From positions 1-40,732 of the IMG/VR virus record IMGVR_UViG_3300045942_000027: a DNA stretch of 40,732 nt; one strand, 5' to 3'. The DNA comes from a virus. Position 1 is the first letter of the stretch. Each line of letters starts with the position of its first letter. The notes beneath the pieces were generated by a model. That model saw nothing but the letters and a program-made list of their open reading frames with translations. It ran no database searches and was not told the origin of the DNA. This document shows, piece after piece, positions 14,836-39,167 of this stretch. Position numbers and translations under genes: made by a program.

Positions 14836-14888
14836 ATTTCCAAATTCGAATTAATCCGTCATACTCCCCCCTTTCTTTGGGGGATCTC

Positions 14889-18633: not shown

Positions 18634-19613
18634 TATTCTGCCTCCGTCGCGGCGAGGTAATCAACCATTTTGAAGCCATTCGGCTGAATATGCACTGCGG
18701 CGGGCGCGATCTGCTCGACTTCATCAGCCATCAGGCCAATCTCAGTGACGTTTGAACCCTTCATTCGGTACGAATAGATGGGCAAGCCATTGTCGAGTGT
18801 TCCGACGCGCTTGATGTCTGTCTTTAGGCGTCGGTCGGAGTACTTGATGCCGGCTGTCAAACCGGTGCCAAGCAGGCCGAAAAGGCCGCCCATTTTGGCG
18901 TTTTGGGATTGAACCTGCGTTTGATAGTTTGAATTCACGAGACCGGTGTAATCCACCCCGCCAACATTTGCCTGGGGCGTGTTCACGAACTGAGGTTGGC
19001 TGACCTGGGCGCCACTTAGGAGCGACGAAATCTCATTGAGTGGCTGGCTTCGCTCCGCATATGCTTCCTGAAGAGCCTGGCTTCGACCGGTCAGATACAG
19101 GTTATTATAAGCATCGTTCTTCGTCTGCCCAAGCTGCTGCATCTGCTGGTCAAACGCTTCCGAGCCGGGGCGAATGCCGGATGCGATCAGACGAGAACGC
19201 AGGGCTTCTTCCTCGCGCGCGAATCGAGGATCGAGGCGAGCAGAGCCGAGTTCATTAAGACGAGATTCCGCCTCTGTGGTATCGGCCTTGAACGGCGTGC
19301 TGAGGTAGTCCGTCAGGAACTTCGACTGCTGATTAGCCAATGTTCCAAGATTAAGCTCCGCCGCGTCCGTCTGGTCTTTGATCGCCTGCTGGCCTGCCGA
19401 AAGTGAAGTCGTTGCGGTGTATTTCGGAATAGTGACCGTTTGGCCCTGAGAATTGACGAACGTATTATTCCCGTTTTGCGTATAGGTCAGCGTGCCGTCA
19501 GGCCCGACCTGATCCACCATGTTTGTCAGCTGCTGAGCCTGCGCAGTATCGACGTTCATGCCGGCCTGCGCGGCTGCAGTTTCCTTCGGATCGGGCGCTT
19601 TAGGTGTTTTCAT
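18633..19613 (-). CDS. Virion protein with a C-terminal peptidase-S74 intramolecular chaperone domain
   Basis: C-terminus YSDRRLKTDIKRVGTLDNGLPIYSYRMKG...IGLMADEVEQIAPAAV matches the auto-cleaving chaperone domain of fibre and endosialidase proteins. Confidence 0.7.
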   Translation of the reverse strand: MKTPKAPDPKETAAAQAGMNVDTAQAQQLTNMVDQVGPDGTLTYTQNGNNTFVNSQGQTVTIPKYTATTSLSAGQQAIKDQTDAAELNLGTLANQQSKFLTDYLSTPFKADTTEAESRLNELGSARLDPRFAREEEALRSRLIASGIRPGSEAFDQQMQQLGQTKNDAYNNLYLTGRSQALQEAYAERSQPLNEISSLLSGAQVSQPQFVNTPQANVGGVDYTGLVNSNYQTQVQSQNAKMGGLFGLLGTGLTAGIKYSDRRLKTDIKRVGTLDNGLPIYSYRMKGSNVTEIGLMADEVEQIAPAAVHIQPNGFKMVDYLAATEAE

Positions 19614-19993
19614 CTCAAAAACCTATATTCACTTTTCAGGATGCCAATGATGAGGCCATTGCGGCCCGGCCCGTAGAAATCTCGCATTTCGCCCTCGCGC
19701 TTACCGCCGAGGCGTTCAGCCAGGCGCGCAACGGTCTCTTGCTCTGTGGTGAAGGTCATTCGGATGCAGCCAATTTGCCGGAAAACGTATTCCCCAACCT
19801 CTGCCAGAAATTTCCTTGTCCACGCCTGCCCCGCTACCGTCACCTCGACACTCGGCCCTGTGAAGCAGTTGAACACTGCGCCAGCAACGATCGTGCCGTT
19901 TTCCTCGATGCCGATAGCTGTGAAGGGCGGGTATAGAGCGACCTGCAATGAATCGCTGACAAAGCGGATAACCCGCTCATCCGAGACAATCAT
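19610..19993 (-). CDS. GNAT-fold acetyltransferase-like protein (127 aa)
   Basis: The C-terminal half (FLAEVGEYVFRQIGCIRMTFTTEQETVARLAERLGGKREGEMRDF) resembles the RimJ/RimL-type GNAT core. No canonical Q/RxxGxG/A motif seen. ATGA-coupled on both sides. Confidence 0.45.
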   Translation of the reverse strand: MIVSDERVIRFVSDSLQVALYPPFTAIGIEENGTIVAGAVFNCFTGPSVEVTVAGQAWTRKFLAEVGEYVFRQIGCIRMTFTTEQETVARLAERLGGKREGEMRDFYGPGRNGLIIGILKSEYRFLR

Positions 19994-21807: not shown

Positions 21808-22508
21808 AGAGCGCCCAACGGCTTGGGATAGGCGGTATGCACATCGCCGCCCCATCGCTTGTGAGAGCCTTGAAGAATACGCGCGCCGCGGTCGTCGGAC
21901 GACACCTGAGCCATGCGAATTTCGTAGTTCTGCAGATCCTCGGCATATTCCAAACGCTTCTGAGCGCGCCATTTCCAGATAAGGCCGAGCGTCAAAAGGC
22001 TTTCGTCAAGGACGAAATCATCCTCATCCTTGGTGAACTCCGCCTTTCGTGACTGGTCGTCACCGTCAATCACCGCGTTCTTGCTGATATAGTAAAACTC
22101 TGCGGTGGTAGACGCCCCGATCGGCGGGCTGAACTGGAACTTGCCGTCAAGAATGATCCAATAGCCAGGGCTTGGCGACATAAGTCCGTTGATCAGGTCG
22201 TTCCAGAAATTAAGGCTTGGCGCATCCACATAGCCCCATGTGTACCAGTTGGCGCGGGTGACACGTCCGCTCTTGGGCATCCTGTCGTAGTCATCTGGCT
22301 TGTCGAAAGCCATGGTAACGCCGTTCCCAACCATCTGGTGCTTCACAATAAGTGACCGCCACTCGCAATATTTCACGATATCGCGCACCACGTCCTTGGC
22401 GAGGTCAACAATCTCCATTTCGAACGTATTCTGGCTCGAAACGAAGGTCGAAGGCTTTTGGCCAATAAGACGGATAGCTGCGCTCTGTGCGGCGGTCAAA
22501 AAGGTCAT
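21804..22508 (-). CDS. Tail adaptor / tubular-A-like protein, 234 aa
   Basis: Start ATG 22508 lies 1 nt after the upstream TAA. Position-based call only. Confidence 0.4.
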   Translation of the reverse strand: MTFLTAAQSAAIRLIGQKPSTFVSSQNTFEMEIVDLAKDVVRDIVKYCEWRSLIVKHQMVGNGVTMAFDKPDDYDRMPKSGRVTRANWYTWGYVDAPSLNFWNDLINGLMSPSPGYWIILDGKFQFSPPIGASTTAEFYYISKNAVIDGDDQSRKAEFTKDEDDFVLDESLLTLGLIWKWRAQKRLEYAEDLQNYEIRMAQVSSDDRGARILQGSHKRWGGDVHTAYPKPLGAL

Positions 22509-22509
22509 T

Positions 22510-23262
22510 TTACTTGGCCTCTGCAGCCAGTTCGTCGGCCATCTTGACCAATGTTTCATGCGAAGGATTGCCACGCGGCTTGCTGCCAGACTTCTCCGCG
22601 ATGTATTCCTTGAGCAAACCATCGTCCCAATCCTCGAATTCAGAGACGGGGGCTGGTGCCGGCTGATCGTCGGTATAGCCGAGATCATCAGAAATGCGCT
22701 CGTCGCCCTGGTTGGGACGCTGCGCAAGCTCTGCCTTGAGACGCTCGACTTCGGATTTGTAGAACTCGGCTTCACTGGCAAGCTTGGTGACGTTTGCCGA
22801 ACCGGCGGCGTTGTCGAGGTAGGCCTGCGCCTGGTTCTTCCACTCGCGCCCGCCCTGCCCGAGCGTCTTCAGCGGTTGACCGTCGAGTGCTGCAAGAGAT
22901 TCGGCGGTGTAGATATGCAAAGCCTTGAGCTCCATGCGCTTGGCCTTCGTGAGGAAGGGAAGCTCTTCGAGAGGCGTGCCGGCCTGGGTCTGCGCAACGC
23001 CCTTCTTGAACTCAAGATACTGGCGATTGTACTTCTGCGCATAAGTGACCTTCTCGGTCGTGCCGTCTTCGCGCTCAACCCAGCCTGGGGCCTCAGCGTG
23101 AGCGGGGAAAACTGGAGAGTTGAGCCGATCGCCGCTCATGCGAATGCGGCAAACCTCGACATCGTCATAGATCGGGCGCTGCGCTTCTTTGCTCTTGGCG
23201 ACGTTGACCTGTGGGAAGTTCTCGAACGTCACCACAATGCGGCTGTCATCTGAAATTGCCAT
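22510..23262 (-). CDS. Virion-module hypothetical protein (250 aa) with an acidic C-terminal half
   Basis: ORF track. Lies between the capsid-decoration gene and the tail genes. Confidence 0.5.
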   Translation of the reverse strand: MAISDDSRIVVTFENFPQVNVAKSKEAQRPIYDDVEVCRIRMSGDRLNSPVFPAHAEAPGWVEREDGTTEKVTYAQKYNRQYLEFKKGVAQTQAGTPLEELPFLTKAKRMELKALHIYTAESLAALDGQPLKTLGQGGREWKNQAQAYLDNAAGSANVTKLASEAEFYKSEVERLKAELAQRPNQGDERISDDLGYTDDQPAPAPVSEFEDWDDGLLKEYIAEKSGSKPRGNPSHETLVKMADELAAEAK

Positions 23263-23291
23263 TTCGATTGATCCTGTCTGAGAGGGAGGAA

Positions 23292-23309
23292 GAGGGGCCG
23301 AAGCCCCTC
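23292..23309 (-). terminator. GC-rich UUCG-tetraloop hairpin after the capsid/decoration genes (partial terminator or RNA stabiliser)
   Basis: Minus-strand RNA reads GAGGGGC-UUCG-GCCCCUC followed by UUCCUCCCUC. Lies in the 54-bp gap 23263..23316. Confidence 0.45.
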
Positions 23310-23316
23310 AAGATTG

Positions 23317-23625
23317 TCAGATCGCGGTCTTCTTGAACCACGCGTAGTTGTTGATCGGAACGCCACCCGTGACAGTGGGAGCGGTCCAGGCGCCGGCACC
23401 TGTTGCCATGGTCATGGCTGGCTCGGTGAGTACGCAGACAGCACCCGAAGCGATCGCCGCCGATGCCTGGGCAAAGATATAGTCGTGGCCGTCGTTGGCC
23501 TTGACAACCGCGCCGAGTTGCGGCGACGGGACAGCGCGACCCGCGTCCCAATAGCCCAGAGTGCCGACCAGACCATTGTTGATGCTGATGGTCGGGCCAA
23601 GTGATGGAGTGATATGAAATGCCAT
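23317..23625 (-). CDS. Small capsid-associated protein (decoration/cement-like, 102 aa)
   Basis: Directly downstream of the major capsid gene. SD GAGGAGG. Gly/Ala-rich, beta-rich-looking sequence. Family unverified. Confidence 0.4.
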   Translation of the reverse strand: MAFHITPSLGPTISINNGLVGTLGYWDAGRAVPSPQLGAVVKANDGHDYIFAQASAAIASGAVCVLTEPAMTMATGAGAWTAPTVTGGVPINNYAWFKKTAI

Positions 23626-23638
23626 TTGTCAGGCCTCC

Positions 23639-24655
23639 TCAAGCTGCAGGGTTGGAGTCGTAAAGTCTCCAATTAAACAATGGGTTGGTCATGGTCAGTT
23701 CGCCCATGAAGCCGAGGTACTGCGCAACGGCGTCCTGGTTGATTGGCTTCTGCCCGTCGCCTTCGAACAGTTTGTCCATGTTGCGATCCGGGTGGTAGCG
23801 CATACGGAAGGTGTCGGAGTTGAGACCGAACGTGGTGTTAGCCGGGATAGCCGCACCAATACCGCCAGCCATGACGACTTCGACCGAGCGACCGGCGCCG
23901 ACGTATTCGATCGACTGGAAACCGAGAGAGCCCAGTGAGCCAGGCTTGATGATGCGCTGGGCAGCAACAAGCGCTGCGTCATAGGCCGCATAATGCTCGT
24001 TCGACATGAGCAGGATATCCGCCGACTGCTGGCCGCGAGACCGCTGGAGAAAGATCTGCGTCAGGATTGGGCGAATGGTCGTCGCATTGATCTGGGTGAT
24101 GCCCGAGAATGCCGAGTTTGCATCGAAGGTCGTGGTGCGCCAAAGGGCGTACTGCGAACGGTCGATACCACCGTACACACCGGTGTTGGTGATGATCGGA
24201 ACAGCCGCGGCAAGGCCGGTGAGCTGCTTGCCGTTGTTGGCCGTGCCATCGGAATAAAGACCGGTTTCGATCGTCTCCGTCAGCGCGGTTTCGGCTGCAT
24301 CCATGTACGCCGTCATTACGTCCATGATTTCAGCTTCGCCGCTGTTGTTCAGAATTTCCTCCATAGTGAGGGAAATCGGAACGGCGACCATCTTGGGCGT
24401 CCAATAGGCGTCATTGTAGAGTTCGATAGGCGGGTTATCGAGGAAGTCGTAGCCAGAATACCACTGGCCGGTCGGCTTCGCGATCTGGAGCGTCTGACGG
24501 ATACGTGGGCCCGAATAGGTGCTCCACATGCCCTTGCGCTTCATGAGTGCGAGGAGCGCGATCTGGTTCGATACCAGGTCTTGACGACCGGGACCGCGAT
24601 CCTCAAGTGCCATGGAAAGCACCTGCTGATAGTTGATTGATGAGTTGATAGGCAT
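23639..24655 (-). CDS. Major capsid protein
   Basis: 338 aa, directly after the scaffold gene and before the decoration gene. Size and composition fit an HK97-fold coat protein. Confidence 0.75.
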   Translation of the reverse strand: MPINSSINYQQVLSMALEDRGPGRQDLVSNQIALLALMKRKGMWSTYSGPRIRQTLQIAKPTGQWYSGYDFLDNPPIELYNDAYWTPKMVAVPISLTMEEILNNSGEAEIMDVMTAYMDAAETALTETIETGLYSDGTANNGKQLTGLAAAVPIITNTGVYGGIDRSQYALWRTTTFDANSAFSGITQINATTIRPILTQIFLQRSRGQQSADILLMSNEHYAAYDAALVAAQRIIKPGSLGSLGFQSIEYVGAGRSVEVVMAGGIGAAIPANTTFGLNSDTFRMRYHPDRNMDKLFEGDGQKPINQDAVAQYLGFMGELTMTNPLFNWRLYDSNPAA

Positions 24656-24667
24656 TTGTTTTTCCCT

Positions 24668-25792
24668 TTAAGCGCCTGCGCGGGCCATTGCCCGCTTCAC
24701 GGCCTCTGCGTTGGATGAAGGCACAGACTTTTTCGCTGCGGGGCTAATGCCCCCGGTCGGTGCGCCTGACACTGATTTTGCCCCTGCGGGGTTGAAAGCC
24801 GGTGCCTGGGTTTGAGCCGGGACACTTTCTGCCGGTTTGAGCGGCTGGCTGGTCTGCGCTGCGTTTGAGGCAGGCGCTTTAAGGACGGATGCGAGCTCGT
24901 AAGCCGATGGCAAGTCCTTGGCAGTTCCAGTCTTGAGGAGCGTTGCGATCACGTCGGAAAGCTCGTCAAAACGGTCATGTGACGCCGCAAATTCTGCGAC
25001 GATATCGGGGGCCTTTGCAGCCATTTCCATCTGCTGGATTTTGGCTTCAAGCTCCTGAATGCGGGAATGGGCTTGCTGAACCTGCACATTCGGGTTCTGG
25101 CCCATGATGTGGGCTGCGACGGCCTGCAGATTGATTCCGAAATGATCGGTGACGCGCTTCAAACCCTCGATCGGGTTGCGTGCAAAAGCGTCTTCGATCT
25201 CGGCAACCTGCTTTAGGGACTCGTGGACACCTTCGCGGCCATTCTTGCGGGCCAGGTCGTCCCATTCACGGACCTTCTCGTATCGCTCAGCCGATTCCTT
25301 GTATTTCTTGTGACCCTCTTCGAGTTCACGCTGCATGCGGTGAACTTCTTCCTGCACCGTTTCGGGTGTGGTGGCCCAGTCGCGCTTGCCATGCTCAAGG
25401 AACCGTGCAGGCGGCTCATGGTGAGGCTTCCGCCCCTCAGACGTTTGGTTGCCTTCCGGCTTCGCCTGCACAGTCCCCTTGGCATCATCCGGCGTATTGA
25501 CCGGCGATTGCTTGGCTTCTGCCTTCGGTGCTGGTTTTGCCTCGGCCTTCGGATCGACTTTCACGTCCTTGGCTTTGGCTTCCGCCTGGGCTTGCGCCTT
25601 TTCCTTTGACGCTTCGAGCGCACGCTTTACGGCTTCCGAATTGTTCTTCGGCGCTTCCGGTTTGGCCTCTGGTTGAGGCTTGCGTGTCGCATCTTCGGGG
25701 ATCTGGCTGCCAAGCTCGTGATTAGTGGGATGGGCATCGGTAATGATTGCGCCGCCGGATGCGTCCGGGGCCGCTGCTGGTGCATCGGTCAT
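24668..25792 (-). CDS. Scaffolding protein
   Basis: Ala/Lys/Glu/Pro-rich, low-complexity helical protein between portal and capsid. Confidence 0.65.
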   Translation of the reverse strand: MTDAPAAAPDASGGAIITDAHPTNHELGSQIPEDATRKPQPEAKPEAPKNNSEAVKRALEASKEKAQAQAEAKAKDVKVDPKAEAKPAPKAEAKQSPVNTPDDAKGTVQAKPEGNQTSEGRKPHHEPPARFLEHGKRDWATTPETVQEEVHRMQRELEEGHKKYKESAERYEKVREWDDLARKNGREGVHESLKQVAEIEDAFARNPIEGLKRVTDHFGINLQAVAAHIMGQNPNVQVQQAHSRIQELEAKIQQMEMAAKAPDIVAEFAASHDRFDELSDVIATLLKTGTAKDLPSAYELASVLKAPASNAAQTSQPLKPAESVPAQTQAPAFNPAGAKSVSGAPTGGISPAAKKSVPSSNAEAVKRAMARAGA

Positions 25793-25815
25793 GGTGGTTT
25801 CCTGTCTGAGAGGAG

Positions 25816-26163
25816 TTAGACGCGCTCGCCGCGGCGCTCGCCGCGGAGATAGCGGGCTTTGGCCTTTTCAATGGAGTCGCGGTAAACCTTCGGGTCTACC
25901 TTCTCCTTATTCTTCGGGCGCAGACGGGCAGGATCGTTGCCTACCTCAATAGCGCCGGCTTCCCGCGTGATGCGAGAGAACGTCGATTTGCTGGTGTAAT
26001 ATTTGCCGTCGATCGGATGCTGAAGCGGCTCGGTGGTGTCGCTGATGAAATAAGGCACGGGAAGGCCTTCCGACTGCCCTTCGGAAGCGACGGGATAGCA
26101 TTCAAGCGGCCACTCTTCCGTTTCATGCCATTTGCTGCACATGCGGCAGAAACGCTGCCTCAT
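25816..26163 (-). CDS. Hypothetical protein (115 aa) with an N-terminal Cys cluster
   Basis: ATGA-coupled to the portal stop. Contains CRMCSKWH...EC. Confidence 0.5.
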   Translation of the reverse strand: MRQRFCRMCSKWHETEEWPLECYPVASEGQSEGLPVPYFISDTTEPLQHPIDGKYYTSKSTFSRITREAGAIEVGNDPARLRPKNKEKVDPKVYRDSIEKAKARYLRGERRGERV

Positions 26164-28511
26164 TCGTCTGCCTCCTTGCTTTCCTGCATCTTCGCCTGTG
26201 CAGTCGCAGCACTGATCTCCACGCCGTGCTCCTTTGCCTCAATGTCGGCGTCGGTCTTGGCGATATGGGATTGCGTCGAAACCTTCGTCTGGTCGATCTT
26301 GGCGCGCAGCAGCTCGATGTTCAGAACACCAAGCTCAAGCTCCTGAGCGTGCTTTTTTGCTTCCTGTTCTGACTTCAGCTGGATCGCCTGCACCTCATGA
26401 GCCGTCTTGGCCTCAAGCATTTTCGCCTGATGGTCGGCCAGTTGACCCTTGATCTGCATATCCGTCTGCGCTGCCTGTTGCTTGCGCGCCTCGTCAGCCT
26501 GTGATGTCTGCTGCTTCAGCTGTGCGTCCAGCTGCTTTGCCTGCATGTCGGCCTGTGTCTTCTGTTGTTCCATTGCCAAACGCTGCTGCTCTGCCTGTGC
26601 GGTTGCCTGCGCTGCGTCAGCCTCTGGGTTTGGTGCCGGCTGCGATGCCATGTTCTTCATCGCATCGGCAAACTCGCTGATTGTCGTATCGAGTTCGCGA
26701 CCGGCCCTGAACTGGCTGGCAACGTACTTGAGCATGTCCGACACCAGCGGCGCGGCCTGCGGCATGGCCTGAAGAAGCGGGAACGCCTGCCCCATATACC
26801 CGCCGACTGCCGTCACAAACTCGGTTGCGCGCTGCTTCTGAGCGTTCTCATCTGGGGCGATCGTGGAATCTGTCTCAATGTCGAGGATGAACGGGCGTAG
26901 ACGCTGCTCACGCAACAATTCCATGACCTGATCAATGGTCACGGTTTCGCCTTCTTTGCGGATTTTCTCCTGAAGCTGGGCGGTCTGCTGTTGCGTCTGC
27001 TGCTGGAGCTGTTGAGCGGCTTTCTGCGCCTCTTCCGGGTTCTCTTGCGCCTTCTGCTGCATCTGCGGATTAGCTATGGCCTCCTTGGCCTGCTTCCCTG
27101 CGGACTTCACCAGCTCCTTGCCCTGGTCTTCGAGAGCCTTGACCTGCTTCTTCACGTCAGCGTCGGTCGGCAATTCCATTTGGCTCATGTCTTCCAGAGT
27201 TTTCTGCTGGAAGTTCTCAGCCATGATCTCCGCGGCAATGCGGGTAATATCGCGGGCTATGCGCACAAGCTCGTTCTGGCGATCCCTCACTCGAATTGAG
27301 CCGTACTGGCTCTTCAGTTCCTGGGCTCCAAGCGTCTCGTTTGCGTCTGTCGAGCCACGCATGATGTCGGATAGTCCGGTGATCTGGTACACGTCATCAA
27401 TCAGTGAGCGTCGAAGTTCGACAAGACCGGTGATGGTCTGGGCAACCATATCGATCGGCAGCCAGATGATCTGTTCGCCAGAACCGCCGAATGCTGCCCA
27501 ATTGGCGATCGGCACCATGATGGTGCCTTCGTCATTGCGCGCCAGTGCGGATTCGATCGCTTCGCCAACCTCACCACCGCCGGGATAGAAGCCCTTGAGC
27601 TTGACGGCCTCAGTGAGAGCAGCGATGCGCGTCGTGAGCTGGTTGATTTCCTCGATCTGGTCCTTGTAATAGACGTAATCAGGAACCGGTACGAGAGAGC
27701 CAGGCTGCACGGTGGCGTAGGCAGGCCGCGGGCATGGGAAAAATCCCTCAAGTTTCAGGTGCGGCTCATCGCTGTCAAGAACAGTATCAACGCCTTCGAC
27801 AACCCAAACGACGCGGTCTTCAGACTTGGACCAGATTTCCCAAACGCCAGCCTTCTTGATCGGGTCGCGGTTGCCGTTTTCCTTTCGGTCGCGGTCGTTC
27901 TCCTGAAACGCAGCCGTTTTCCAGTCATCTCCGCCGAAGCGATCCTGCATTTCTTCGGCAGTCATCCAGGCACGACGAGCAACCCAATCGACTTCCTGCC
28001 ATTTGCGTGCTGGTGCGCACAACCAATCACGACGATCGACATGCTCGATGCAAACGCGCTCGTTCTTCTTGCCGCGCTTCTCTTTGTCTTCGTAGCGAAT
28101 CCATGCGCAGCCTCGTGCAAGGCGCGTCAGGTCGTCACGAATGAGGATCATCGTGGAATCGATATCCTCCAGTTCGAACTGCACCGTTGTGGCGCGCTCC
28201 AGAAGCTCGGAGGCGGTCTGTGCAACAGGCTTGCGGCCACGGAAGCGAGGCGTGACGACAGGCACGGGAGGACGCGAATAGATCGACGGGCCGAGCACCT
28301 GGATATTTGCCCAGAATAGCTGAAACTCACGATCACGCCCCACGCCGGCAAGGCGCGACAGATCAGCAAAACGCTTGTCAATGTTGTCGCACTTCTGCTG
28401 CCAGTCGTGCATCGCATTTTCGGCGTCTTCGATCAGATTGAGCCACGCCTTAGAGCTTTCAGGCTCTAAGGACGGGTCATAATCTGGCTGTTCGAACTGA
28501 GCATCAACCAT
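26160..28511 (-). CDS. Portal protein with a long C-terminal Gln/Ala/Lys-rich coiled-coil extension
   Basis: 783 aa, immediately downstream of TerL. About 250 aa of heptad-like QQ/AQ/KQ repeats at the C-terminus. Confidence 0.75.
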   Translation of the reverse strand: MVDAQFEQPDYDPSLEPESSKAWLNLIEDAENAMHDWQQKCDNIDKRFADLSRLAGVGRDREFQLFWANIQVLGPSIYSRPPVPVVTPRFRGRKPVAQTASELLERATTVQFELEDIDSTMILIRDDLTRLARGCAWIRYEDKEKRGKKNERVCIEHVDRRDWLCAPARKWQEVDWVARRAWMTAEEMQDRFGGDDWKTAAFQENDRDRKENGNRDPIKKAGVWEIWSKSEDRVVWVVEGVDTVLDSDEPHLKLEGFFPCPRPAYATVQPGSLVPVPDYVYYKDQIEEINQLTTRIAALTEAVKLKGFYPGGGEVGEAIESALARNDEGTIMVPIANWAAFGGSGEQIIWLPIDMVAQTITGLVELRRSLIDDVYQITGLSDIMRGSTDANETLGAQELKSQYGSIRVRDRQNELVRIARDITRIAAEIMAENFQQKTLEDMSQMELPTDADVKKQVKALEDQGKELVKSAGKQAKEAIANPQMQQKAQENPEEAQKAAQQLQQQTQQQTAQLQEKIRKEGETVTIDQVMELLREQRLRPFILDIETDSTIAPDENAQKQRATEFVTAVGGYMGQAFPLLQAMPQAAPLVSDMLKYVASQFRAGRELDTTISEFADAMKNMASQPAPNPEADAAQATAQAEQQRLAMEQQKTQADMQAKQLDAQLKQQTSQADEARKQQAAQTDMQIKGQLADHQAKMLEAKTAHEVQAIQLKSEQEAKKHAQELELGVLNIELLRAKIDQTKVSTQSHIAKTDADIEAKEHGVEISAATAQAKMQESKEADE

Positions 28512-29921
28512 TCAAAGCTTTATCCGTCTTGATGAGCTCGCCATGGGAGGCGGCGGGGCAAGGATTTTGCCCTTTGGAATGATGAGCGGAGGCGGCGTAT
28601 CAATCGTCGGAATGGAGCGCCATGAAAGAGCAAGGTATCGAAAGGCATCGGACAGGTGAGAAGACCAGTCATGCACCTCAGACGCCTTGAACGTCTTCTT
28701 CTCGTCGTCCCATTCGCGTCGGTATTGCTCTAGTGCCGAAATTCCTTGATCTTCACAGTCTGGGTGGAATAGGCACAGGGGCAAGGTTTTGCGAACAGCG
28801 TTGATACCGTCCATCTTCGTAGCCATGGGCACCAGAAACGGCTTGAGGCCATACTCTCGCATCGTTTCGACGCGGGTGCGGCCCGTCCCCCATTCCTTCA
28901 CCTTGGCGTCGTGAGGGACGAAATCAGTGCCGAGCTTCCACCCGCGCTCCTGGTGGCGATTGTGGACAACATCGGCGTAATGATCGAGGCCGACGCCAGA
29001 CTGCGAGTAGCAATCCAGCACGAACACCTGAGCACCGCGGACCTGAAACCACCAGATAGACGTGTCGTCCTTTACTCCGATATCCCACGCTCTGTGCACA
29101 GGCAGGCTTAAATCAGGCTCGCACTCTTCGGTGATCCGTCCTTCGCGCCGTACCGCGACCATTTCTCTGGCATAGAAGGCGCCAAGGATAGCCGCGTTGA
29201 ATGAGACCTCGTATTCCTGCTCAAACTGCGCTCTGCCGATGTCCTCGCCATACAGCGCGATATACTCCGACAAGCTTTCCTTGATCTGCTGTGGCGATAG
29301 AGCCCCTGTCTCGTGGATGCTTAACGTTTCAGCGAACCAACGCGGGTTGTTCCTTGCCATCTCATACATTGAGTGAGCATGGTTGCGACCGCGGGGCGTG
29401 GTAATGAAAGCTGCCCAGCCGTCGTTCTCTTCGATCATGGGGCGGATGTAACCCCAAGAACTCGGGTTGCCCAAAGCCCACTCAGAGAAAACCACGCCGC
29501 CGACGCCCGCGCCTACGAGGCTGTTGTATCGGTCAGATCCGACTAGCTGCCATGTGCTGCCGTTCCTGAACTTGATCTTCATTTCCGTGGCGTTTGGCTC
29601 GCCGTCGATCAGCTCTTGAGGGAACGCCTCGAATATGCGCCTCTTGCCCGTATGTGCCGATACCGCGTCCCATATGGCTTTGCGGCACTGGTTATACTCG
29701 GGCAACATGTGCCAGTAGTTGGCAACGCGCTCATGTGCAGCGATCGCCGTCCGGTGAAGGATCACGTCGTCCTTACCCGCGCGACGGTGCCAGATGCCAA
29801 TTGCTCTTTTGCCGCCTCTTTCCAGATAATCCCAAAGCGGTCGCTGGTACGGCCTTGGAGACCAGCCGTTAGGAAGTCTTATCCGCAAAGCGGACGATCT
29901 CCAGAACCATCGGGCCCCCAT
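28512..29921 (-). CDS. terL: Terminase large subunit
   Basis: Walker-A-like WHRRAGKDD near the N-terminus and nuclease-domain-like C-terminal half (VHRAWDIGVKDDTSIWWFQ, DWSSHLSDAFRY). Start uncertain: ATG 29921 or TTG 29888. Confidence 0.85.
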   Translation of the reverse strand: MGARWFWRSSALRIRLPNGWSPRPYQRPLWDYLERGGKRAIGIWHRRAGKDDVILHRTAIAAHERVANYWHMLPEYNQCRKAIWDAVSAHTGKRRIFEAFPQELIDGEPNATEMKIKFRNGSTWQLVGSDRYNSLVGAGVGGVVFSEWALGNPSSWGYIRPMIEENDGWAAFITTPRGRNHAHSMYEMARNNPRWFAETLSIHETGALSPQQIKESLSEYIALYGEDIGRAQFEQEYEVSFNAAILGAFYAREMVAVRREGRITEECEPDLSLPVHRAWDIGVKDDTSIWWFQVRGAQVFVLDCYSQSGVGLDHYADVVHNRHQERGWKLGTDFVPHDAKVKEWGTGRTRVETMREYGLKPFLVPMATKMDGINAVRKTLPLCLFHPDCEDQGISALEQYRREWDDEKKTFKASEVHDWSSHLSDAFRYLALSWRSIPTIDTPPPLIIPKGKILAPPPPMASSSRRIKL

Positions 29922-30150
29922 CCTTGCCGCTGTGCTCAATGCTGGCGAGCTTTGCATGCACGTAAGGCGCAGCCTTCTCAGCAGCCCACATGCGATCCTT
30001 TACGTCAGCCTGCTCATTGCGCAGTATCTCAAGCATGTATTCAAGAGGGGTTAGGCCTTCTGTTGAAGCCTTCTCCGCAAGCTCTCTGTTTTTCTCGGTC
30101 AACGCGCCGCTTGGCCGGCCCGCGCCTTCGCGTTTACCTCCGCGCGCCAT
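29869..30150 (-). CDS. terS: Terminase small subunit
   Basis: MARGGKREGAGRPSG...LTPLEYMLEILRNE...RMWAAEKAAPYVHAKL is a classic small-terminase pattern. ATG 30150 has AAGGAAA upstream. Confidence 0.75.
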   Translation of the reverse strand: MARGGKREGAGRPSGALTEKNRELAEKASTEGLTPLEYMLEILRNEQADVKDRMWAAEKAAPYVHAKLASIEHSGKDGGPMVLEIVRFADKTS

Positions 30151-30291
30151 TGTTTGATTTCCTTTGATTAAATTCAAACGAGGCAGCCTGTACGGCCTCA
30201 CTGTGTTATTCCGGTTTGCCCACTTGAGCGCCGCCACGCAAAATTATTTCATTCAGCCGGTGAAGGCCTGGCATTTCTCGATAATGTTTTT

Positions 30292-30549
30292 CTACGAGTT
30301 GAGGGCTTCTCTAGCCTGTGGGCCATCAAGCCTCGTCAGCAAACGGCTGATAACCTCATCTTTGGTAATCCCAGAGTCCGGCGGCAGATACTGCGCTAGA
30401 TCCTGCTGGCAGTCCTTCACGAGGCGGATAAGCTTTTGGGTCTGGCTCATCACCCTCTCCCGCTCTTGCTCTGTGGTGGTCATGGGGTCAGTAGCCTCGA
30501 GCTGGGTTATCGCAGTACCCATCACGGTCATAATGGCGGCTGCGCTCAA
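30292..30549 (-). CDS. Hypothetical protein (85 aa or shorter)
   Basis: ORF track only. First ORF after the non-coding leader. Confidence 0.4.
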   Translation of the reverse strand: MSAAAIMTVMGTAITQLEATDPMTTTEQERERVMSQTQKLIRLVKDCQQDLAQYLPPDSGITKDEVISRLLTRLDGPQAREALNS

Positions 30550-31320
30550 CTGGCGCCGAGGCTTGCTGCATATATGCCACCGTCATTGCATACCGAGCGT
30601 CTGTCTTCATCCGGGGCCGACGAACTTTCGGCTTCTGGCCAAGAACCAATCCACGGTTAAGGTTCTTGCTTTATCGCACGTGGCTTAGCCACCCCCGAGC
30701 ACACTGTGCCTTGGGCACATGCGCGAAAAGGTATGGGGGCCAAGCAATCCCGTCGCGACTGAGACATCTCGGCCAAGCTCCTGCATATTCGCCTACGGGA
30801 CCGGAACCCTCTATGGTGCCAGCTAGGAGGAGCTACCTCTTTCGCGGCTTCGGCTACTTGCGATCACTGCTCTTCCCAATTCGGTTTAAGCTTTGTCTCT
30901 CACAACACGGCCTATCTGATAGTCAACGTGTTTTGAGTGTCATGGGTGGTGGTCAAATAAGAACCCGGGGCCGTGCCGCCACTCCCCGGGCATTCGCAGA
31001 AGCAAAGATCATTCACGATGTAGCGGCCATCACGGTCAGAAACTTTGCTTCGTCTGCATCCCGTCGCTTCGCCTCTTCGGCTCTCACTGACGGGTGCTGA
31101 CATCGACAGGAAGGGAACGACCGAGCACTCCCAATCTTCTCGAACCGAAGTCCGCCCTTCCTGATTTGCTGCGAGGGCCACACGCTACCGTGGCTTCCGG
31201 GTAAATCGTGATCGGTTGTGCGTCGCATTGACGCCAGCTCCGCGATTTCGGCCCCTGCCTTCAATGGGGCGCTTCTGCGTTTCAGCGCCGCCTCGCATTA
31301 CGTTGCCCTGATGGGCGAAA
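30550..31320 (-). promoter_or_regulatory. 770-bp non-coding, hairpin-rich leader ahead of the packaging/structural operon (candidate late control region)
   Basis: No credible ORF in any frame. Many GC-rich stem-loops (30616..30632, 30638..30669, 30680..30692, 30705..30717, 30964..30990, 31109..31161). Confidence 0.45.
30952..30990 (-). terminator. Intrinsic terminator on the minus strand inside the late leader
   Basis: Minus-strand RNA reads CCCGGGG-AGUGGCGGCACGG-CCCCGGG followed by UUCUUAUUU. There is no T-tract on the plus strand. Confidence 0.55.
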
Positions 31321-31842
31321 TTAACCTGTTGCCACCTTCAAAGGGTTCGACCGCTGCGCAACTGGCTTACCTTCTTTTCGGTGCCTATGCGCATCTTTGG
31401 CGTTGTCTGAAGCATTACCCCAATAAAGATGCTTTGGGGTGACGCATCCTAGATGCCCATTGCCGCAACGGTGAAGCGCCATAGCCTTTGGGTCTTCTGG
31501 AAGCTTGTTCACCTTTAGGCACATTGCGCGGTGCGCTGGCATTCTCTTAAAATTGAATGTCACCATGCCACGAGGCGAAGCTGCTGTAGTGAACGGATAA
31601 ATTATGCACTGATCGCCTTCATACGCAGAGAAAAGCTTTATCCAAAGCTCACTAGAGCCAGAACGAACTTTGCTAGGGCAAACGCTATTCCCTGGCAGCC
31701 GCACCACTCTTTGCTTCCAGCCAACATCAACGTGCTTACCCAGGCATTGGGTAACGAACTCGTGAGCTGCTTCCAAAAGAAATTTGTCGGGGGTCTTCGT
31801 CCCACAGTATCTCAAGTGCATTGGAATTGTATGCCGGTTCAT
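31321..31842 (-). CDS. HNH (HNH_3-type) homing endonuclease-like protein
   Basis: AHRAMCL...HRCGNGHLGCVTPKHLYWGNASDNAKD is the phage HNH_3 signature. Confidence 0.75.
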   Translation of the reverse strand: MNRHTIPMHLRYCGTKTPDKFLLEAAHEFVTQCLGKHVDVGWKQRVVRLPGNSVCPSKVRSGSSELWIKLFSAYEGDQCIIYPFTTAASPRGMVTFNFKRMPAHRAMCLKVNKLPEDPKAMALHRCGNGHLGCVTPKHLYWGNASDNAKDAHRHRKEGKPVAQRSNPLKVATG

Positions 31843-31951: not shown

Positions 31952-32578
31952 TTAGCTTGCCATCGCGAAATTTGCAATAGGCCCCTCGCCTTCAAGGCTT
32001 TCCAATTCCTTGAGAATCAACAGGACTCTTTCGCGAGTTGGAGCCGATAGCTCTTCCATGGCTTGCTCAGCAGCATATCTCATAGAGACCTTCTTTCGTC
32101 GGCCTTTTGGTAATATCAGGCCCAGCTGGCGATTGAGGGCGTTTCGGCGCTGTTGGTTGGCAAGCTTCAGCTTTGCTTCCCTCTCCTGCTCGTAGATCGA
32201 TTTGCGCTCGAGATCGGCGAACATGAGGGTGCCGATATCTTCCGCCTCACGAAAGCAGGCGGGGCCACCGTCACGTGATGATCTCAGGAAGCACATGACA
32301 CCTTCGGTCCTGCGCACCTTCTCGAACTCGCCGTCTGCGATGTTGACGAACACATACCCGACCAGCAACGGAAAACGCTTGGCGACAACCTTGTTAGTGC
32401 GCTGGTGCCTCACGTCCCGCCAGAAAGACGGCATGTAAACGTCAATGCCCTCATTGCGCAGATTGCGCTCGATAATACTCTCACCCTCGCGCTTCGCCGG
32501 CACGTTGGCAGCCATAGACGCCATGCGCTGAGTGCCTGGCATTGGTCGGATTGCGTACCACTTGGTGTTCGTTTTCAT
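31952..32578 (-). CDS. NusG/RfaH-like NGN-domain protein without a KOW domain (candidate late antiterminator)
   Basis: KWYAIRPMPG...ERNLRNEGIDVYMP...AKRFPLLVGYVFVNI...VRRTEGVMCFLRS follows the NGN consensus. The C-terminal 90 aa are charged and helical, not KOW-like. Confidence 0.7.
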   Translation of the reverse strand: MKTNTKWYAIRPMPGTQRMASMAANVPAKREGESIIERNLRNEGIDVYMPSFWRDVRHQRTNKVVAKRFPLLVGYVFVNIADGEFEKVRRTEGVMCFLRSSRDGGPACFREAEDIGTLMFADLERKSIYEQEREAKLKLANQQRRNALNRQLGLILPKGRRKKVSMRYAAEQAMEELSAPTRERVLLILKELESLEGEGPIANFAMAS

Positions 32579-32802: not shown

Positions 32803-32973
32803 TCAATCCCCTTGTTTGTTTCTACCGAGAATTCGCTTGATCTCGTCCATGCACGCAGATGCGCCGCGCCCCTGCTGGTATTGGTCGAGAATGCGATGAA
32901 TAGCCGTCTCGCGCTTCTTGCGGTCGCTATTCGCCGCCTTGGCTTGGTGAATTGGTTGAGGAATAGCGCTCAT
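32803..32973 (-). CDS. Small hypothetical protein (56 aa, below the ORF-track cutoff)
   Basis: ATGA overlap with the HNH-AP2 stop at 32970..32973. Open to TGA 32803..32805. Confidence 0.4.
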   Translation of the reverse strand: MSAIPQPIHQAKAANSDRKKRETAIHRILDQYQQGRGASACMDEIKRILGRNKQGD

Positions 32974-33578
32974 GTAGGGGCGCCCTCCCTTTCAGCCTTG
33001 CGAGCTCGTGCAAACTGGTTGGGGGGGTCGTCGGTCCGAGTGAAGCCAAGAACTCTCTCGGCAGCTTTTCGAGCTATGTTCGCTTCGTGCAGCGTTCGGA
33101 AGGCGCCCAAATAAACATGCCTGGGGCCGTTCCAGATACGAGCCACCCACCTCCCGTCGCCGGGATTGTTGTTATATTTGGGCTTCCAATTTACGCCATG
33201 GACGCCCGAGGTGTTGTTGACACGTTGCGCCGCGTTGCGCTGGTTTTCGCTTTTCGTGACCTTCCGAAGATTTCCCCATCGGTTATCGGTCGGATCTCCG
33301 TTGATGTGGTCTATTTCGTATTCAGGATAAAAGCCGAACTCTCCGGTCATCATCAACCAGATCACACGGTGGGCATGATAATATGCCCCGTCAATGATCA
33401 CCTTGCGATACCCCTCAAACTTGAGGATCGATCCAGCTGGCTTGCCAACCCTTTTTAGGTGTTTGGCGTATGCGGCGGCGGTAAATTCAGCCCGGGGCCG
33501 CTCATTGAATAAAAGTTGACCTGTCTCTGGATCGTAATTGAAATATTCATTCGCTCGTGCTTGTGTGAGCGCAGCCAT
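32970..33578 (-). CDS. HNH_3 endonuclease fused to an AP2 DNA-binding domain
   Basis: AHRVIWLMMTG...IDHINGDPTDNRWGNLRKVTKSENQRN (HNH), then SGVHGVNW...GRWVARIWNGPRHVYLGAFRTLHEANIARKAA (AP2). Paralog of 40201..40722. Confidence 0.8.
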   Translation of the reverse strand: MAALTQARANEYFNYDPETGQLLFNERPRAEFTAAAYAKHLKRVGKPAGSILKFEGYRKVIIDGAYYHAHRVIWLMMTGEFGFYPEYEIDHINGDPTDNRWGNLRKVTKSENQRNAAQRVNNTSGVHGVNWKPKYNNNPGDGRWVARIWNGPRHVYLGAFRTLHEANIARKAAERVLGFTRTDDPPNQFARARKAEREGAPT

Positions 33579-36482: not shown

Positions 36483-36485
36483 GTT

Positions 36486-36530
36486 CTGCGTCTCCTGTGG
36501 TTATCTGCTCTCGTTCACACGGAGACGCAG
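36486..36530 (-). promoter_or_regulatory. 10-bp stem / 25-nt loop hairpin sequestering the SD of the 36093..36482 gene
   Basis: ctgcgtctcc (36486..36495) pairs perfectly with ggagacgcag (36521..36530). On the minus-strand RNA the 3' arm GGAGACGCAG contains the SD 8 nt from the ATG. Confidence 0.5.
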
Positions 36531-36662
36531 ATGGGCCACAGGCATGAAAATGATGGGATCGCAGGCAAAGCTGGTAACGATGTCCGCGATCCCGGCCCGC
36601 CGCATCTGACGAACCTAATTTCGTTTCCAAAGAGCAAAACGCCGCTTCCCCGCTCTTTGGCT

Positions 36663-36698
36663 GCCGATGGCGAGCCGCCCTTGCCATCGGCTTTTATT
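36663..36698 (+). terminator. Plus-strand intrinsic terminator inside the minus-strand early operon, preceded by a second 9-bp hairpin (36627..36660)
   Basis: GCCGATGGC-GAGCCGCCCTT-GCCATCGGC followed by TTTTATT. On the minus strand no U-tract follows the stem. Confidence 0.5.
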
Positions 36699-36819
36699 GA
36701 TCTAGGAGAAGCTACACAGGCCGTCGTGTTGAGACTGGCGAAGGGCTTTCCGAAGATAAAAGTTTTGCGGGCTGATGACTGGGAGGAAGACACCAGCCCG
36801 CGCTAACCGCCCCTGGAGT

Positions 36820-36927
36820 TCAGCGGTCAGAACTTGCGCGCATAAGCGCCAGGACAAATACGGTGATGATTGAGCCGGACATTGCGCCGGCAAAGAACCA
36901 TGCCCCCGCTTGGAAAGCACCACTCAT
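36820..36927 (-). CDS. 35-aa hydrophobic peptide (possible membrane micro-protein)
   Basis: ATGA-coupled to the upstream micro-ORF. Sequence MSGAFQAGAWFFAGAMSGSIITVFVLALMRASSDR. Confidence 0.35.
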   Translation of the reverse strand: MSGAFQAGAWFFAGAMSGSIITVFVLALMRASSDR

Positions 36928-37052
36928 GCCGCCACCCATTCACGGTTGATGCGGTCTACCTCTTCCAGCGCGGCGTATTCAGCCACGGGGATGAGGATTG
37001 CTTCGAGCGCAGTTTCGGTGAGCTTGTCTTTGATGGAGGGGCGCTTCTTCAT
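36924..37052 (-). CDS. 42-aa micro-protein
   Basis: ATGA-coupled to the ACP stop (37049..37052) and to the next ORF (36924..36927). Sequence MKKRPSIKDKLTETALEAILIPVAEYAALEEVDRINREWVAA. Confidence 0.4.
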   Translation of the reverse strand: MKKRPSIKDKLTETALEAILIPVAEYAALEEVDRINREWVAA

Positions 37053-37285
37053 GCCAGCGTCCTCTCAATGAGCAGAACGGCGTCAGCTACAGTCTCAACC
37101 TTCTCAGCAGCGTCGTCATTCAAGATGATGGCAAACTCATCCTCGACAGCCATAAGGATTTCGATGCTGTCCAAGCTGTCGGCACCAAGATCGTCCACCA
37201 GCTTTGAGGACATGGTGACGCTTTCGAGTGGGACACCAACGCAATCCGAAACAATGGTCGCAAACCTATCGAAAATCAGGCTCAT
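37049..37285 (-). CDS. acp: Acyl carrier protein (78 aa) with an intact DSL phosphopantetheine-attachment motif
   Basis: Collinear, same length and roughly 45 % identical by eye to E. coli AcpP. [23 protein letters not shown] aligns with [23 protein letters not shown], with Ser36 conserved. Confidence 0.85.
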   Translation of the reverse strand: [78 protein letters not shown]

Positions 37286-37419
37286 GCTCGCTTCTCCTCC
37301 CGAATATCCCTTGGTGAAATTGCCTTGGCCTTCTCGTAGCCTTCGATCTGTTGCTGAGCGGATAGGTCGATCATTACCGCTTGGAGCTTTGTCTTTTGAC
37401 GGGCTTGGAAAGGGGTCAT
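37282..37419 (-). CDS. 45-aa micro-protein
   Basis: ATGA overlaps at both ends (37416..37419 and 37282..37285). Confidence 0.4.
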   Translation of the reverse strand: MTPFQARQKTKLQAVMIDLSAQQQIEGYEKAKAISPRDIREEKRA

Positions 37420-37847
37420 GCTGCCCTCACATCGTCCTTGTGACCGCTACCGCCGCAATGAGGGCAAGCATTCTCGCCATCTTCGATGAAGCGCGCTTCC
37501 GGGTTGGTGTCGACAAATGCGCGACCTTCCGCGATCATCTTCTTCAACTCTCCAGGCGCGAGGCTCGATGCACCACGTCGAACCTTAGACTCCACGCTCG
37601 GATGTTCCGGCACAACGAAGTGCTGCCAAGCGATCGGCTGCTCACCATTGGCAAAGCCAGACCAGCGGCCAGCATTCTTGCCAACTGGCGGGATCCAGTA
37701 GGACTTGATCACCTTGCCACATCCCGTCGCCGCCCAGATGTAATCCGGAACGAAATCGCTGATCTGGTGAATGCGATCGCCTACCTTACGCTCGCTGTGT
37801 ACCGTCTTGCCGCATGGGGCGGCGGTAATGTCGAAATCCCAGGTCAT
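37416..37847 (-). CDS. Hypothetical protein (143 aa) with a C-terminal CPHCGGSGH zinc knuckle
   Basis: Start MTWDFDI is ATGA-coupled to the upstream stop. Confidence 0.55.
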   Translation of the reverse strand: MTWDFDITAAPCGKTVHSERKVGDRIHQISDFVPDYIWAATGCGKVIKSYWIPPVGKNAGRWSGFANGEQPIAWQHFVVPEHPSVESKVRRGASSLAPGELKKMIAEGRAFVDTNPEARFIEDGENACPHCGGSGHKDDVRAA

Positions 37848-38155
37848 GCTGCCACCTCTGCAGCCGCAATTGCGCGGCGCATGCACTTGAGGACGGCCTT
37901 ATGACCGTGCCCGTCGTTGAACTCGAAAATGGATTGTTTGCCGCAGGCATTGCGCACCGCGCGGATCGCCGCGCCGTAGTCGTCGCCAGAGCATTTCACC
38001 CTCTGGATCGCGCCGACGATATCGAAGCTCTTGGCATGCTCAGAAGAGGGTTTCACTTCATTGCCTCGGGCGTCAAAGGCGATACCGTCACGCGCCCATT
38101 TGTTTGGGCTGGCAATGATCGACAGTGCTTCGGAAAGTACAGCTGCGGCACTCAT
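37844..38155 (-). CDS. Hypothetical protein (103 aa)
   Basis: ORF track. ATGA-coupled to the cro-like gene. Confidence 0.55.
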   Translation of the reverse strand: MSAAAVLSEALSIIASPNKWARDGIAFDARGNEVKPSSEHAKSFDIVGAIQRVKCSGDDYGAAIRAVRNACGKQSIFEFNDGHGHKAVLKCMRRAIAAAEVAA

Positions 38156-38394
38156 GCGACTGTCTCCGGAATGGCGAAGAACTCCTCAGCGTCGAGCTTG
38201 ATCTGGTTTGCCTTTGCATACGCCAACAGTGCTGGCGCATCGCCTTGCGGGATTACGCCGCCAGTACCGCCCCGATCCTTCGGGTACATCCAACGATATA
38301 CGCGAGAGACGTGCTTACCGGTGATCTCAGACACCTTGTCGATGCCGATCTTGGCGATGATGGATTTTGCTGGGTCGAGATGTTTTTCGCTCAT
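38152..38394 (-). CDS. Cro-like HTH regulator (first gene of the leftward early operon)
   Basis: HTH-like KVSEITGKHVSRVYRWMY. Divergent from the CI gene across the operator region. No SD, so possibly leaderless. Confidence 0.6.
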   Translation of the reverse strand: MSEKHLDPAKSIIAKIGIDKVSEITGKHVSRVYRWMYPKDRGGTGGVIPQGDAPALLAYAKANQIKLDAEEFFAIPETVA

Positions 38395-38399: not shown

Positions 38400-38486
38400 T
38401 ATAATTGCGATGATCGCAAAATTAAGTCAAGCGATTTTTGCGATATCCGCTATAGCAAAATTTGCGATGTTCGCCAAAATCCGCGC
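38400..38486. promoter_or_regulatory. Immunity control region: three operator-like 15-mers plus divergent promoter candidates
   Basis: Perfect palindrome TTGCGATGATCGCAA at 38405..38419. Imperfect copies start at 38438 and 38462. Leftward promoter candidate TTGACT (38425..38430 rc), N18, AATTAT (38401..38406 rc). Rightward candidate ATAGCA (38452..38457), N17, CAAAAT (38475..38480). Confidence 0.6.
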
Positions 38487-39167
38487 ATGACCGATACTAG
38501 AAAAGAAATCATCGAGTGGATCAGGAACGAACTGGACCGAATGGGCCACGGCGCGAGGATCAAGCTCGCCTCTCATCTAGGCATACGGCCAGAAGGCGTT
38601 ACGCGCATGTTAGGTAAACCCGGCAAGGAAGGTCGAGGCGTTGCCGGGCCGGAACTGGTCAAAATCAGCGAGTTCTTTGGATCGACGCCGCCTGGTCTTA
38701 AATTGGACCTCAATCCGATCGACGTTCAGATTGACACCATCCCTGTACGTGGGAAGGTGGCCGCCAGTTCATGGATGGATGTCGAGGATATGGATTTCGG
38801 CTGGGAGGATATGGAGCCGGTTCCGACGATCAGCGGATACCCAAAAGAGTATCAGTTCGCGTTGATGGTTGAAGGGAACTGCTTAAACAAAAAAGCGGCG
38901 CATGGCGACGTGCTGATTTGCCTTGATATCATCAAAGCTGGCGTACCCTTCAAGGAAGGCCAACTCGTCGTTGTCGAGCGCAAGAAATACGATGGGCAGA
39001 TGGTTCAACGGACGGCTAAGCGAGTTCGGATGACAGCCAAGGGATACGAGCTTTGGCCGGAAAGCACAGACCCGGCGCATCAAGACCCCATTATCCTATA
39101 TGAGGAATCGCCCGGTGAAAGCGCGGTGGTGATCGGCGTTGTTCTATGGATCTTTCGGAAACCTTAG
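38487..39167 (+). CDS. cI: CI-like repressor (HTH plus LexA/S24 peptidase-like C-terminal domain)
   Basis: C-terminal domain aligns with lambda CI: FALMVEGNCLNKK...HGDVLICLD...RTAKRVRM. Start at ATG 38487; the upstream part of the ORF is the operator region. Confidence 0.85.
   Translation: MTDTRKEIIEWIRNELDRMGHGARIKLASHLGIRPEGVTRMLGKPGKEGRGVAGPELVKISEFFGSTPPGLKLDLNPIDVQIDTIPVRGKVAASSWMDVEDMDFGWEDMEPVPTISGYPKEYQFALMVEGNCLNKKAAHGDVLICLDIIKAGVPFKEGQLVVVERKKYDGQMVQRTAKRVRMTAKGYELWPESTDPAHQDPIILYEESPGESAVVIGVVLWIFRKP

Follow-up and report, generated by a model that had tools for sequence, protein, structure and literature searches.

We analyzed a 40,732-nucleotide (nt) virus contig from IMG (IMG/VR record IMGVR_UViG_3300045942_000027, positions 1 to 40,732; "the window" below denotes this whole stretch), which looks like a complete temperate phage genome, and found that the open reading frame (ORF) at 37049..37285 on the minus strand encodes a true AcpP-type acyl carrier protein (ACP). 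The annotation is secure, since sequence profiles, alignment and a modelled structure all agree on it. Selection clearly maintains the gene. It stands alone in the window and occupies a slot in a repressor-controlled early operon at which it is one of several alternative occupants in related phages.

The ORF at 37049..37285 is an AcpP-type acyl carrier protein

37049..37285, minus strand: ACP, an AcpP-type acyl carrier protein of 78 amino acids (aa), with Ser37 in a DSLD motif; profile and structure matches

The first-pass annotation, made from the letters of the window without database searches, had read this ORF as a canonical AcpP-like ACP that keeps the DSL serine, and had suggested a profile search and a structure prediction of the protein alone. 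Both supported the reading. The protein matched the Pfam PP-binding profile (PF00550) at 36.7 bits against a cut-off of 20.8, as well as the NCBIfam models NF002148 (77.3, cut-off 71) and NF002150 (68.2, cut-off 66). It scored 69.6 bits with the TIGR00517 equivalog model for housekeeping AcpP, for which the cut-off is 70.45, and lay clearly under the cut-offs of other equivalog models (75 versus 92; 68.8 versus 106). The PHROG 5934 family, named 'acyl carrier protein', was also matched (E = 1.1e-17, 65 bits, profile positions 18-88 of 93), and the top matches in a sequence search of the PDB were all type-II ACPs. Alignment with Escherichia coli AcpP, using a sequence identical to PDB entry 1L0H, was gapless and gave 46% identity across 70 residues, each protein being 78 aa long.

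The AlphaFold2 (AF2) model of the ACP, with a predicted local distance difference test score (pLDDT) of 75.8, is a four-helix bundle with helices at residues 3-16, 37-51, 57-61 and 66-77, in which helix II begins at the DSL serine, residue 37. Searching with this model in Foldseek gave 85 matches at E <= 1e-3 and template modelling (TM) scores of 0.85-0.93 to type-II ACPs; the matches comprised apo-, holo- and acyl-ACPs, including complexes with AcpS, FabZ, FabD and LpxD. The attachment serine is thus present as had been claimed, within DLGADSLD, and only its number needs correction: it had been called Ser36, which is its equivalent in mature E. coli ACP, and it is Ser37 when the initiator Met is counted. 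The acidic motif of helix II is collinear with the recognition helix of E. coli AcpP. With the DSLD motif, acidic helix II and fold all intact, the protein is predicted to be recognizable by AcpS and by ACP-dependent enzymes.

Ser37 was invariant among the 23-25 aligned sequences (23 of them database homologues), and the equivalent serine was retained in all eight of the annotated phage ACPs that we read, which suggests that attachment of the prosthetic group, or at least recognition by AcpS, matters. Across five related loci the ratio of nonsynonymous to synonymous divergence (dN/dS) was 0.08-0.19, with dS up to ~1.2, and this purifying selection shows that the gene is clearly maintained. These values bear on the idea that the gene is a neutral passenger, captured from a bacterium and playing no part in the phage. 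The absence of the ACP from most related prophages would fit such a passenger. However, strong constraint (dN/dS ~0.1) combined with substantial synonymous divergence speaks against it, as does membership of a phage-wide family; moreover, identity to alphaproteobacterial and E. coli AcpP is only 46-52%, which rules out a recent capture from the host. We therefore consider a passenger scarcely credible.

The carrier protein stands alone in the window

The Pfam scan took in every six-frame ORF of 95 aa or longer, 121 in total, together with some shorter ones. No match to the families of 4'-phosphopantetheinyl transferases (PPTases), fatty-acid synthases, polyketide synthases (PKS) or adenylating enzymes was obtained among these ORFs, nor was any linkage of the ACP to fabD, fabG, fabF or a PPTase gene found in the window. 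The ACP therefore stands alone, in agreement with the first-pass annotation, and any modification or partner must be supplied by the host. We also considered a carrier protein of the nonribosomal peptide synthetase (NRPS) or PKS type. This candidate was rejected, because no adenylation, ketosynthase, acyltransferase or condensation enzymes of that type were found in the window and the top profiles of the ACP are AcpP models.

The gene lies in a coupled, repressor-controlled operon

The surroundings of the ACP gene contain the following features:

38487..39167, plus strand: CI-like repressor with a Peptidase_S24 domain (Pfam Peptidase_S24 2.3e-06), divergent from the chain of genes that contains the ACP
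38405-21, 38438-54 and 38462-78: three 17-nt palindromic operator-like sites of the TTGCGATGATCGCAA type, from a repeat and inverted-repeat search
38401..38430, minus strand: sigma-70-like promoter, TTGACT/18 nt/AATTAT, matching the consensus pattern at 9/12 positions
38152..38394, minus strand: cro-like first gene of the operon, 80 aa, assigned from its position opposite the repressor
37844..38155, minus strand: DUF6197 protein, 103 aa, ATGA-coupled to cro (Pfam DUF6197 3.8e-10)
37416..37847, minus strand: 143-aa protein with a beta-rich, Trp-rich N-domain and a variable tail
37282..37419, minus strand: 45-aa micro-protein, a Cys-less derivative of a CxxC...CxxC zinc-ribbon family
36924..37052, minus strand: 42-aa micro-protein of the 'MKKRP...EVDRINRE.VAA' family, M (alignment A4)
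36820..36927, minus strand: 35-aa single-pass hydrophobic peptide, family T1 (alignment A5)

The likely start of the repressor is the ATG at 38487, which gives a protein of 226 aa, while the longest ORF begins at a TTG at 38367. All three operator-like sites lie in the 92-nt gap between the start of cro (38394) and the repressor ATG (38487), and the promoter-like site, located just upstream of cro and overlapping the first operator copy, presumably drives early transcription of the chain. If the region works like lambdoid immunity regions, the chain would be shut off in lysogens and switched on early once the prophage is induced or a cell is infected. These observations uphold the earlier placement of the ACP just after cro in an early operon, which can now be described as repressor-controlled and equipped with three 17-nt operators; the label 'early-left' reflects orientation only. 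The cro-side operon runs on into the replication and late genes. The cro-like protein of the window had no significant Pfam match itself, and the genes at the cro position in two related loci (L001 and L002) carry P22_Cro/YdaS Pfam matches.

All genes of the chain are on the minus strand, in the order cro, DUF6197, 143 aa, 45 aa, ACP, 42 aa and 35 aa. The coordinates and ATGA overlaps previously given for a chain of five genes were confirmed, but since cro and the DUF6197 gene are also ATGA-coupled, the chain consists of seven genes and starts at cro, and all six of its junctions are ATGA stop/start overlaps. A purine-rich Shine-Dalgarno-like stretch precedes every start in the chain; that of the ACP, GGAGG at ~10 nt upstream, is the strongest of all. 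No promoter- or terminator-like site was found flanking the ACP, which overlaps each neighbour by 4 nt. We considered whether the run of ATGA junctions marks a special operon and rejected this, because ATGA is the usual gene junction across the genome (for example at 34927, 34203, 32578, 26163, 19993, 4822 and 6103), so that the coupling tells us less than it first seemed to.

The carrier gene is an exchangeable occupant of its slot

We compared 28 loci, comprising the window, nine loci from protein look-ups and 18 IMG/VR loci reached through the 143-aa family. The ACP was present in five of the 28, and all 18 of the IMG/VR loci reached in this way lacked it. Its close homologues, 78-96% identical, come from the prophages or phage contigs L001, L002 (the same as IMG/VR locus L025), L003 and L029; on contigs that extend far enough to show it, the gene lies just downstream of the repressor/cro pair (L001 and L002) or of a DUF6197 gene (L029). 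A DUF6197 gene was found in the same position in L029, L034 and L035. Homologues of the 143-aa protein are named from Agrobacterium tumefaciens, A. radiobacter, Neorhizobium and Rhizobium, which places the host in the Agrobacterium/Rhizobium group. A megablast search of 35000-39500 against GenBank phages gave no match, and an Rfam scan of 36000-39300 found nothing.

The first-pass annotation had implied a unit of the ACP and its flanking micro-proteins, and had called for a survey of their co-occurrence. The survey speaks against such a unit. The slot is preceded in relatives by a zinc-ribbon protein of 55-59 aa with a CxxC...CxxC pattern (family Z), with which the 45-aa ORF of the window shares the motifs LS.A.QIE and ISPRDIREEK (alignment A6), and two further families of membrane peptides, T2 and T3, are seen in relatives. 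Members of families M, Z and T2 turn up in several loci that lack the ACP (L033, L034/L035, L036/L037, L043-L045 and L058), with M itself present in L033, L034/L035, L044 and L058; the occurrence of these families in ACP-less relatives takes weight from any special link with the carrier protein. The clearest case is L033, where the gene order is Z, an unrelated 92-aa gene in the ACP slot, M, a 70-aa gene, T1 and a 66-aa gene. DNA similarity between the window and L033 is restricted to two linkers of 40-46 nt that flank the ACP:

37282..37327, minus strand: upstream linker, comprising the 3' end of the zinc-ribbon-family gene, the Shine-Dalgarno stretch and the ATGA; 91% DNA identity to L033
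36923..36962, minus strand: downstream linker, the 3' end of the 42-aa gene; 97.5% DNA identity to L033

These correspond to 4847..4892 and 5230..5269 of L033, and the downstream linker is also matched in L001 and L035. Both look like recombination linkers for cassette exchange. The persistence of the micro-ORF families without the ACP, together with the 92-aa gene in the L033 slot, indicates that the ACP is an exchangeable accessory cassette and not the core of a dedicated module. The slot shows mosaic exchange at conserved gene boundaries, where the ACP is one of several genes that can stand in the same place.

Of all the families, T1 alone is enriched with the ACP, being present in four of the five ACP loci versus one of the 23 ACP-less loci (L033). 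This enrichment, the tight ATGA coupling of the genes and the finding that flavobacterial jumbophage ACPs lie beside secreted and lipoprotein candidates (PMC13573597) would fit a dedicated membrane module, in which the ACP acts with the downstream micro-proteins, especially T1, as a membrane tether or acylation target. Yet the five loci that carry the ACP are closely related, and each of the two is found without the other, T1 in L033 and the ACP in L002, so that co-inheritance adequately explains the pattern. In addition, the 42-aa gene and T1 are set apart by a 108-aa gene in L029, the near-terminal Cys of T1 is missing from the window copy, and ATGA coupling is found genome-wide. A module of this kind is very unlikely in our judgement.

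The exchange of small genes at the slot also bears on a decoy or anti-defence role, according to which an acidic four-helix protein would mimic AcpP and neutralize a host factor that binds ACP, such as a Rel/SpoT-type enzyme or a defence protein. A hypervariable early-operon slot with interchanging small genes is a pattern typical of counter-defence loci, and E. coli ACP binds SpoT and other non-lipid partners (PMC3896788). However, PADLOC gave no defence-family match for the ACP, its chain partners or the next genes, no defence system was found to include an ACP, and the alternative occupants of the slot in relatives (of 92, 83, 70, 66 and 107 aa, and others) yielded no informative function in Pfam or PHROG. 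Simple mimicry, furthermore, would not require an invariant serine. On balance, a decoy seems improbable.

A proposed role in host lipid metabolism

The first-pass annotation had put forward three hypothetical roles for the ACP: diverting host acyl-ACP or lipid-A metabolism, acting as a decoy, or serving as an inhibitor. The reading that we favour, tentatively and with a likelihood that falls somewhat short of even, is that host AcpS loads the ACP, which then engages the type II fatty-acid synthesis (FAS II) and acyltransferase chemistry of the host early in lytic growth. The ACP would be made early upon induction or infection, and host AcpS would turn it into holo-ACP at Ser37. Docking onto host FAS II and onto the acyltransferases for lipid A and phospholipids would go through the conserved acidic helix II, and membrane-lipid metabolism would be shifted, toward either more or less lipid synthesis, during lytic growth. 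Published work fits a role in lipids or membranes, since an interface between a phage ACP and host FabZ has been predicted in a preprint (bioRxiv 10.64898/2026.03.01.708874) and the jumbophage study describes its ACPs as part of a 'host-interface island' (PMC13573597).

Several points weigh against this proposal. Most relatives of this phage group do without an ACP, indicating that it is dispensable. No conserved neighbour that would point to a pathway was found among the eight diverse phage ACPs, and the conservation of the serine is equally expected if the ACP merely titrates AcpS. A published study, moreover, states of phage ACPs that their function 'remains unclear' (PMC5463345).

The main rival is that the protein serves as an inhibitor for growth arrest or host shutoff: apo- or holo-ACP, made early and in excess, would block phospholipid synthesis or titrate AcpS and coenzyme A, so that membrane growth and division are halted while the phage replicates. 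Excess ACP is known to halt the growth of E. coli through glycerol-3-phosphate acyltransferase, apo-ACP being the stronger inhibitor (review PMC3896788). The location of the gene in an early operon, its Shine-Dalgarno sequence and the lack of a phage PPTase among the scanned ORFs would all suit an inhibitor. However, the PlsB-type acyltransferase that would be its target is mainly gammaproteobacterial, and alphaproteobacteria are thought to use PlsX/PlsY. Inhibition would also not obviously need the whole acyl-pocket architecture to be kept at a dN/dS of ~0.1. We regard this explanation as unlikely, if less so than the others set beside the loading of the ACP by host AcpS.

A more speculative reading is that the ACP and T1 form an early-gene device that takes the acyl-loaded carrier to the inner membrane, where envelope lipids would be remodelled or a target, of the phage or of the host, acylated. 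We consider this a long shot. If true, it would for the first time assign a function to the orphan ACPs that are widespread in phages and recur across many bacterial phyla. A small temperate phage with a defined repressor-controlled operon, and with natural ACP-plus and ACP-minus relatives, offers a convenient system in which the loading of phage ACPs and their effects on lipids could be tested.

The small neighbouring genes

Protein-level conservation, in-frame indels and the retention of ATGA coupling indicate that the micro-ORFs are real genes, and their conservation in related prophages removes an objection that the first-pass annotation had raised against its own reading, namely a lack of conservation in relatives. 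Alignment A4 of family M contains five members and an in-frame indel of 8 codons. The T1 homologues begin at the ATGA-coupled Met, so that the 35-aa start is favoured over that of the IMG version of this peptide, which is 39 aa long and starts at the ATG at 36939. The micro-protein neighbours are probably independent small early genes and not obligate partners of the ACP. The belief that routine annotation would miss them proved mistaken, because IMG already calls the 45-, 42- and 39-aa ORFs (the 45-aa sequence exactly) and names the ACP, which lessens what is new here; the stored gene calls of relatives include ORFs of 29-42 aa.

The 143-aa protein consists of a beta-rich, Trp-rich domain (residues 1-83; AF2 pLDDT ~88 or more), conserved in 15 homologues, and a variable, disordered tail with a pLDDT < 50. 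A fold search with the N-domain gave no significant match in the PDB or BFVD, the weak DUF551-like matches being at E >= 0.5. Most members of the family (alignment A7; homologues P0032-P0046) end in 'LEDVGGGA' after a disordered linker, which suggests that this short conserved tail is a docking motif; the window protein and one homologue (P0032) end in CPHCGGSGHKDDVRAA instead. The zinc knuckle reported earlier for this protein is unsupported: it amounts to a single CPHCGGSGH in the low-confidence tail, shared by one homologue, and the Pfam zinc-ribbon match (E = 0.036) is below threshold.

Beyond the end of the chain, within the 340-nt gap at 36483..36819, a strong 12-bp GC-rich hairpin followed by TTTTATT was observed at 36663..36691 on the plus strand, opposite to the chain, and it may terminate a convergent or antisense transcript. 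At the equivalent place, L001 and L003 have opposite-strand ORFs of 65-66 aa, for whose proteins no match was found in the window.

Other features of the genome

The plus-strand genes include the S24 repressor, ERF, SSB and an integrase, whereas the cro side carries genes for a DnaA_C-like protein, RusA, HNH and a NusG-like protein. Structural and lysis genes comprise an SU10-type adaptor, a Peptidase_S74 fibre domain and a lysozyme, together with terminase-region and tail genes.

Beside the integrase, a 157-aa ORF (6103..6576, plus strand) contains an R67-type (type II, plasmid-style) dihydrofolate reductase domain (Pfam DHFR_2, 4.8e-17, residues 91-144). This is unusual cargo for a temperate phage and could serve trimethoprim tolerance or nucleotide metabolism. 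The 324-aa ORF directly upstream (5132..6106, plus strand) had a weak WYL-domain match (E = 0.0025, under the cut-off) and may regulate cargo genes expressed in the lysogen. The NusG-domain protein (31952..32578, minus strand; Pfam NusG 9.6e-10), encoded between the terminase region and the replication/HNH genes, is a candidate late-gene antitermination or processivity factor.

In the structural block (8690..31264), Pfam detected the SU10 adaptor, Peptidase_S74 (a tail-fibre intramolecular chaperone) and a weak 'Mtd second domain' (5.4e-4), the last of which hints at a tropism determinant like that of Bordetella phage. Two separate HNH_3 endonuclease genes were found (2e-17 and 2e-15), one of them at 32970..33578 on the minus strand, and a weak His-Me finger match lies at 31321..31842; homing-type nucleases appear to have accumulated close to the terminase.

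Comparison with known systems

The novelty implied for an orphan ACP in a phage does not hold, because such proteins form a named family, PHROG 5934, are annotated as stand-alone ACPs in ~51 phage records from many host phyla, and have been the subject of several papers that describe their function as unclear. The literature treats them as auxiliary metabolic genes with no assigned function (PMC5463345, PMC7760394). A search of genome contigs with the ACP was uninformative, the matches listed being ordinary bacterial ACPs at a distant 33-47% identity. No PPTase or Fab gene adjoined the eight other phage ACPs, whose neighbours were unrelated hypothetical genes. Genes of 129-147 aa that lie downstream of the ACPs of Harreka_1, RP13, phiXF1 and BCSR5 were considered as AcpS-like PPTases and rejected, having no PPTase Pfam match and being mutually unrelated.

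Like housekeeping AcpP (TIGR00517/PRK00982; E. coli 1L0H, Brucella 2N57), the window ACP has the typical length, the four-helix fold, the DSLD motif and an acidic helix II. It differs in being phage-encoded, in lying outside any fabD-fabG-acpP-fabF cluster, in being dispensable among relatives, and in the replacement of Pro55 of the I-P-D loop (L-N-D in the window). Another parallel is provided by the eight Rhodobacteraceae prophages that carry acpP, in some cases as their only auxiliary metabolic gene (PMC8224337), these also being alphaproteobacterial prophages. Three of them, however, contain fabG-acpP-fabF together, perhaps as host flank or as a true pathway fragment (PMC8224337), whereas the window has the ACP alone. 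The gene also resembles the moron-like mosaic cassettes of lambdoid early operons in that it varies among close relatives and is replaced between short conserved boundaries. It is nevertheless not a moron in the strict sense, since it lacks its own promoter and terminator and is read through by translational coupling.

The nearest counterparts are the orphan ACPs of PHROG 5934, for example those of Erythrobacter phages vB_EliS_R6L and ZS04, Olleya phage Harreka_1, Brevundimonas phage Bajun, Ralstonia phages phiRSL1 and RP13 and Vibrio phage helene. Like the window ACP, they are ~78-93 aa long, contain a DS(L/I/F) serine and lie among hypothetical genes of early or replication regions. Nothing in its sequence indicates a new mechanism, and the ACP is a new member of these already catalogued phage proteins, not a new kind of element. 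Unlike those examples, to which it is 36-48% identical, it belongs to the cro operon of a temperate phage of 40.7 kb whose immunity region is lambda-like, and can be demonstrated to be an exchangeable cassette.

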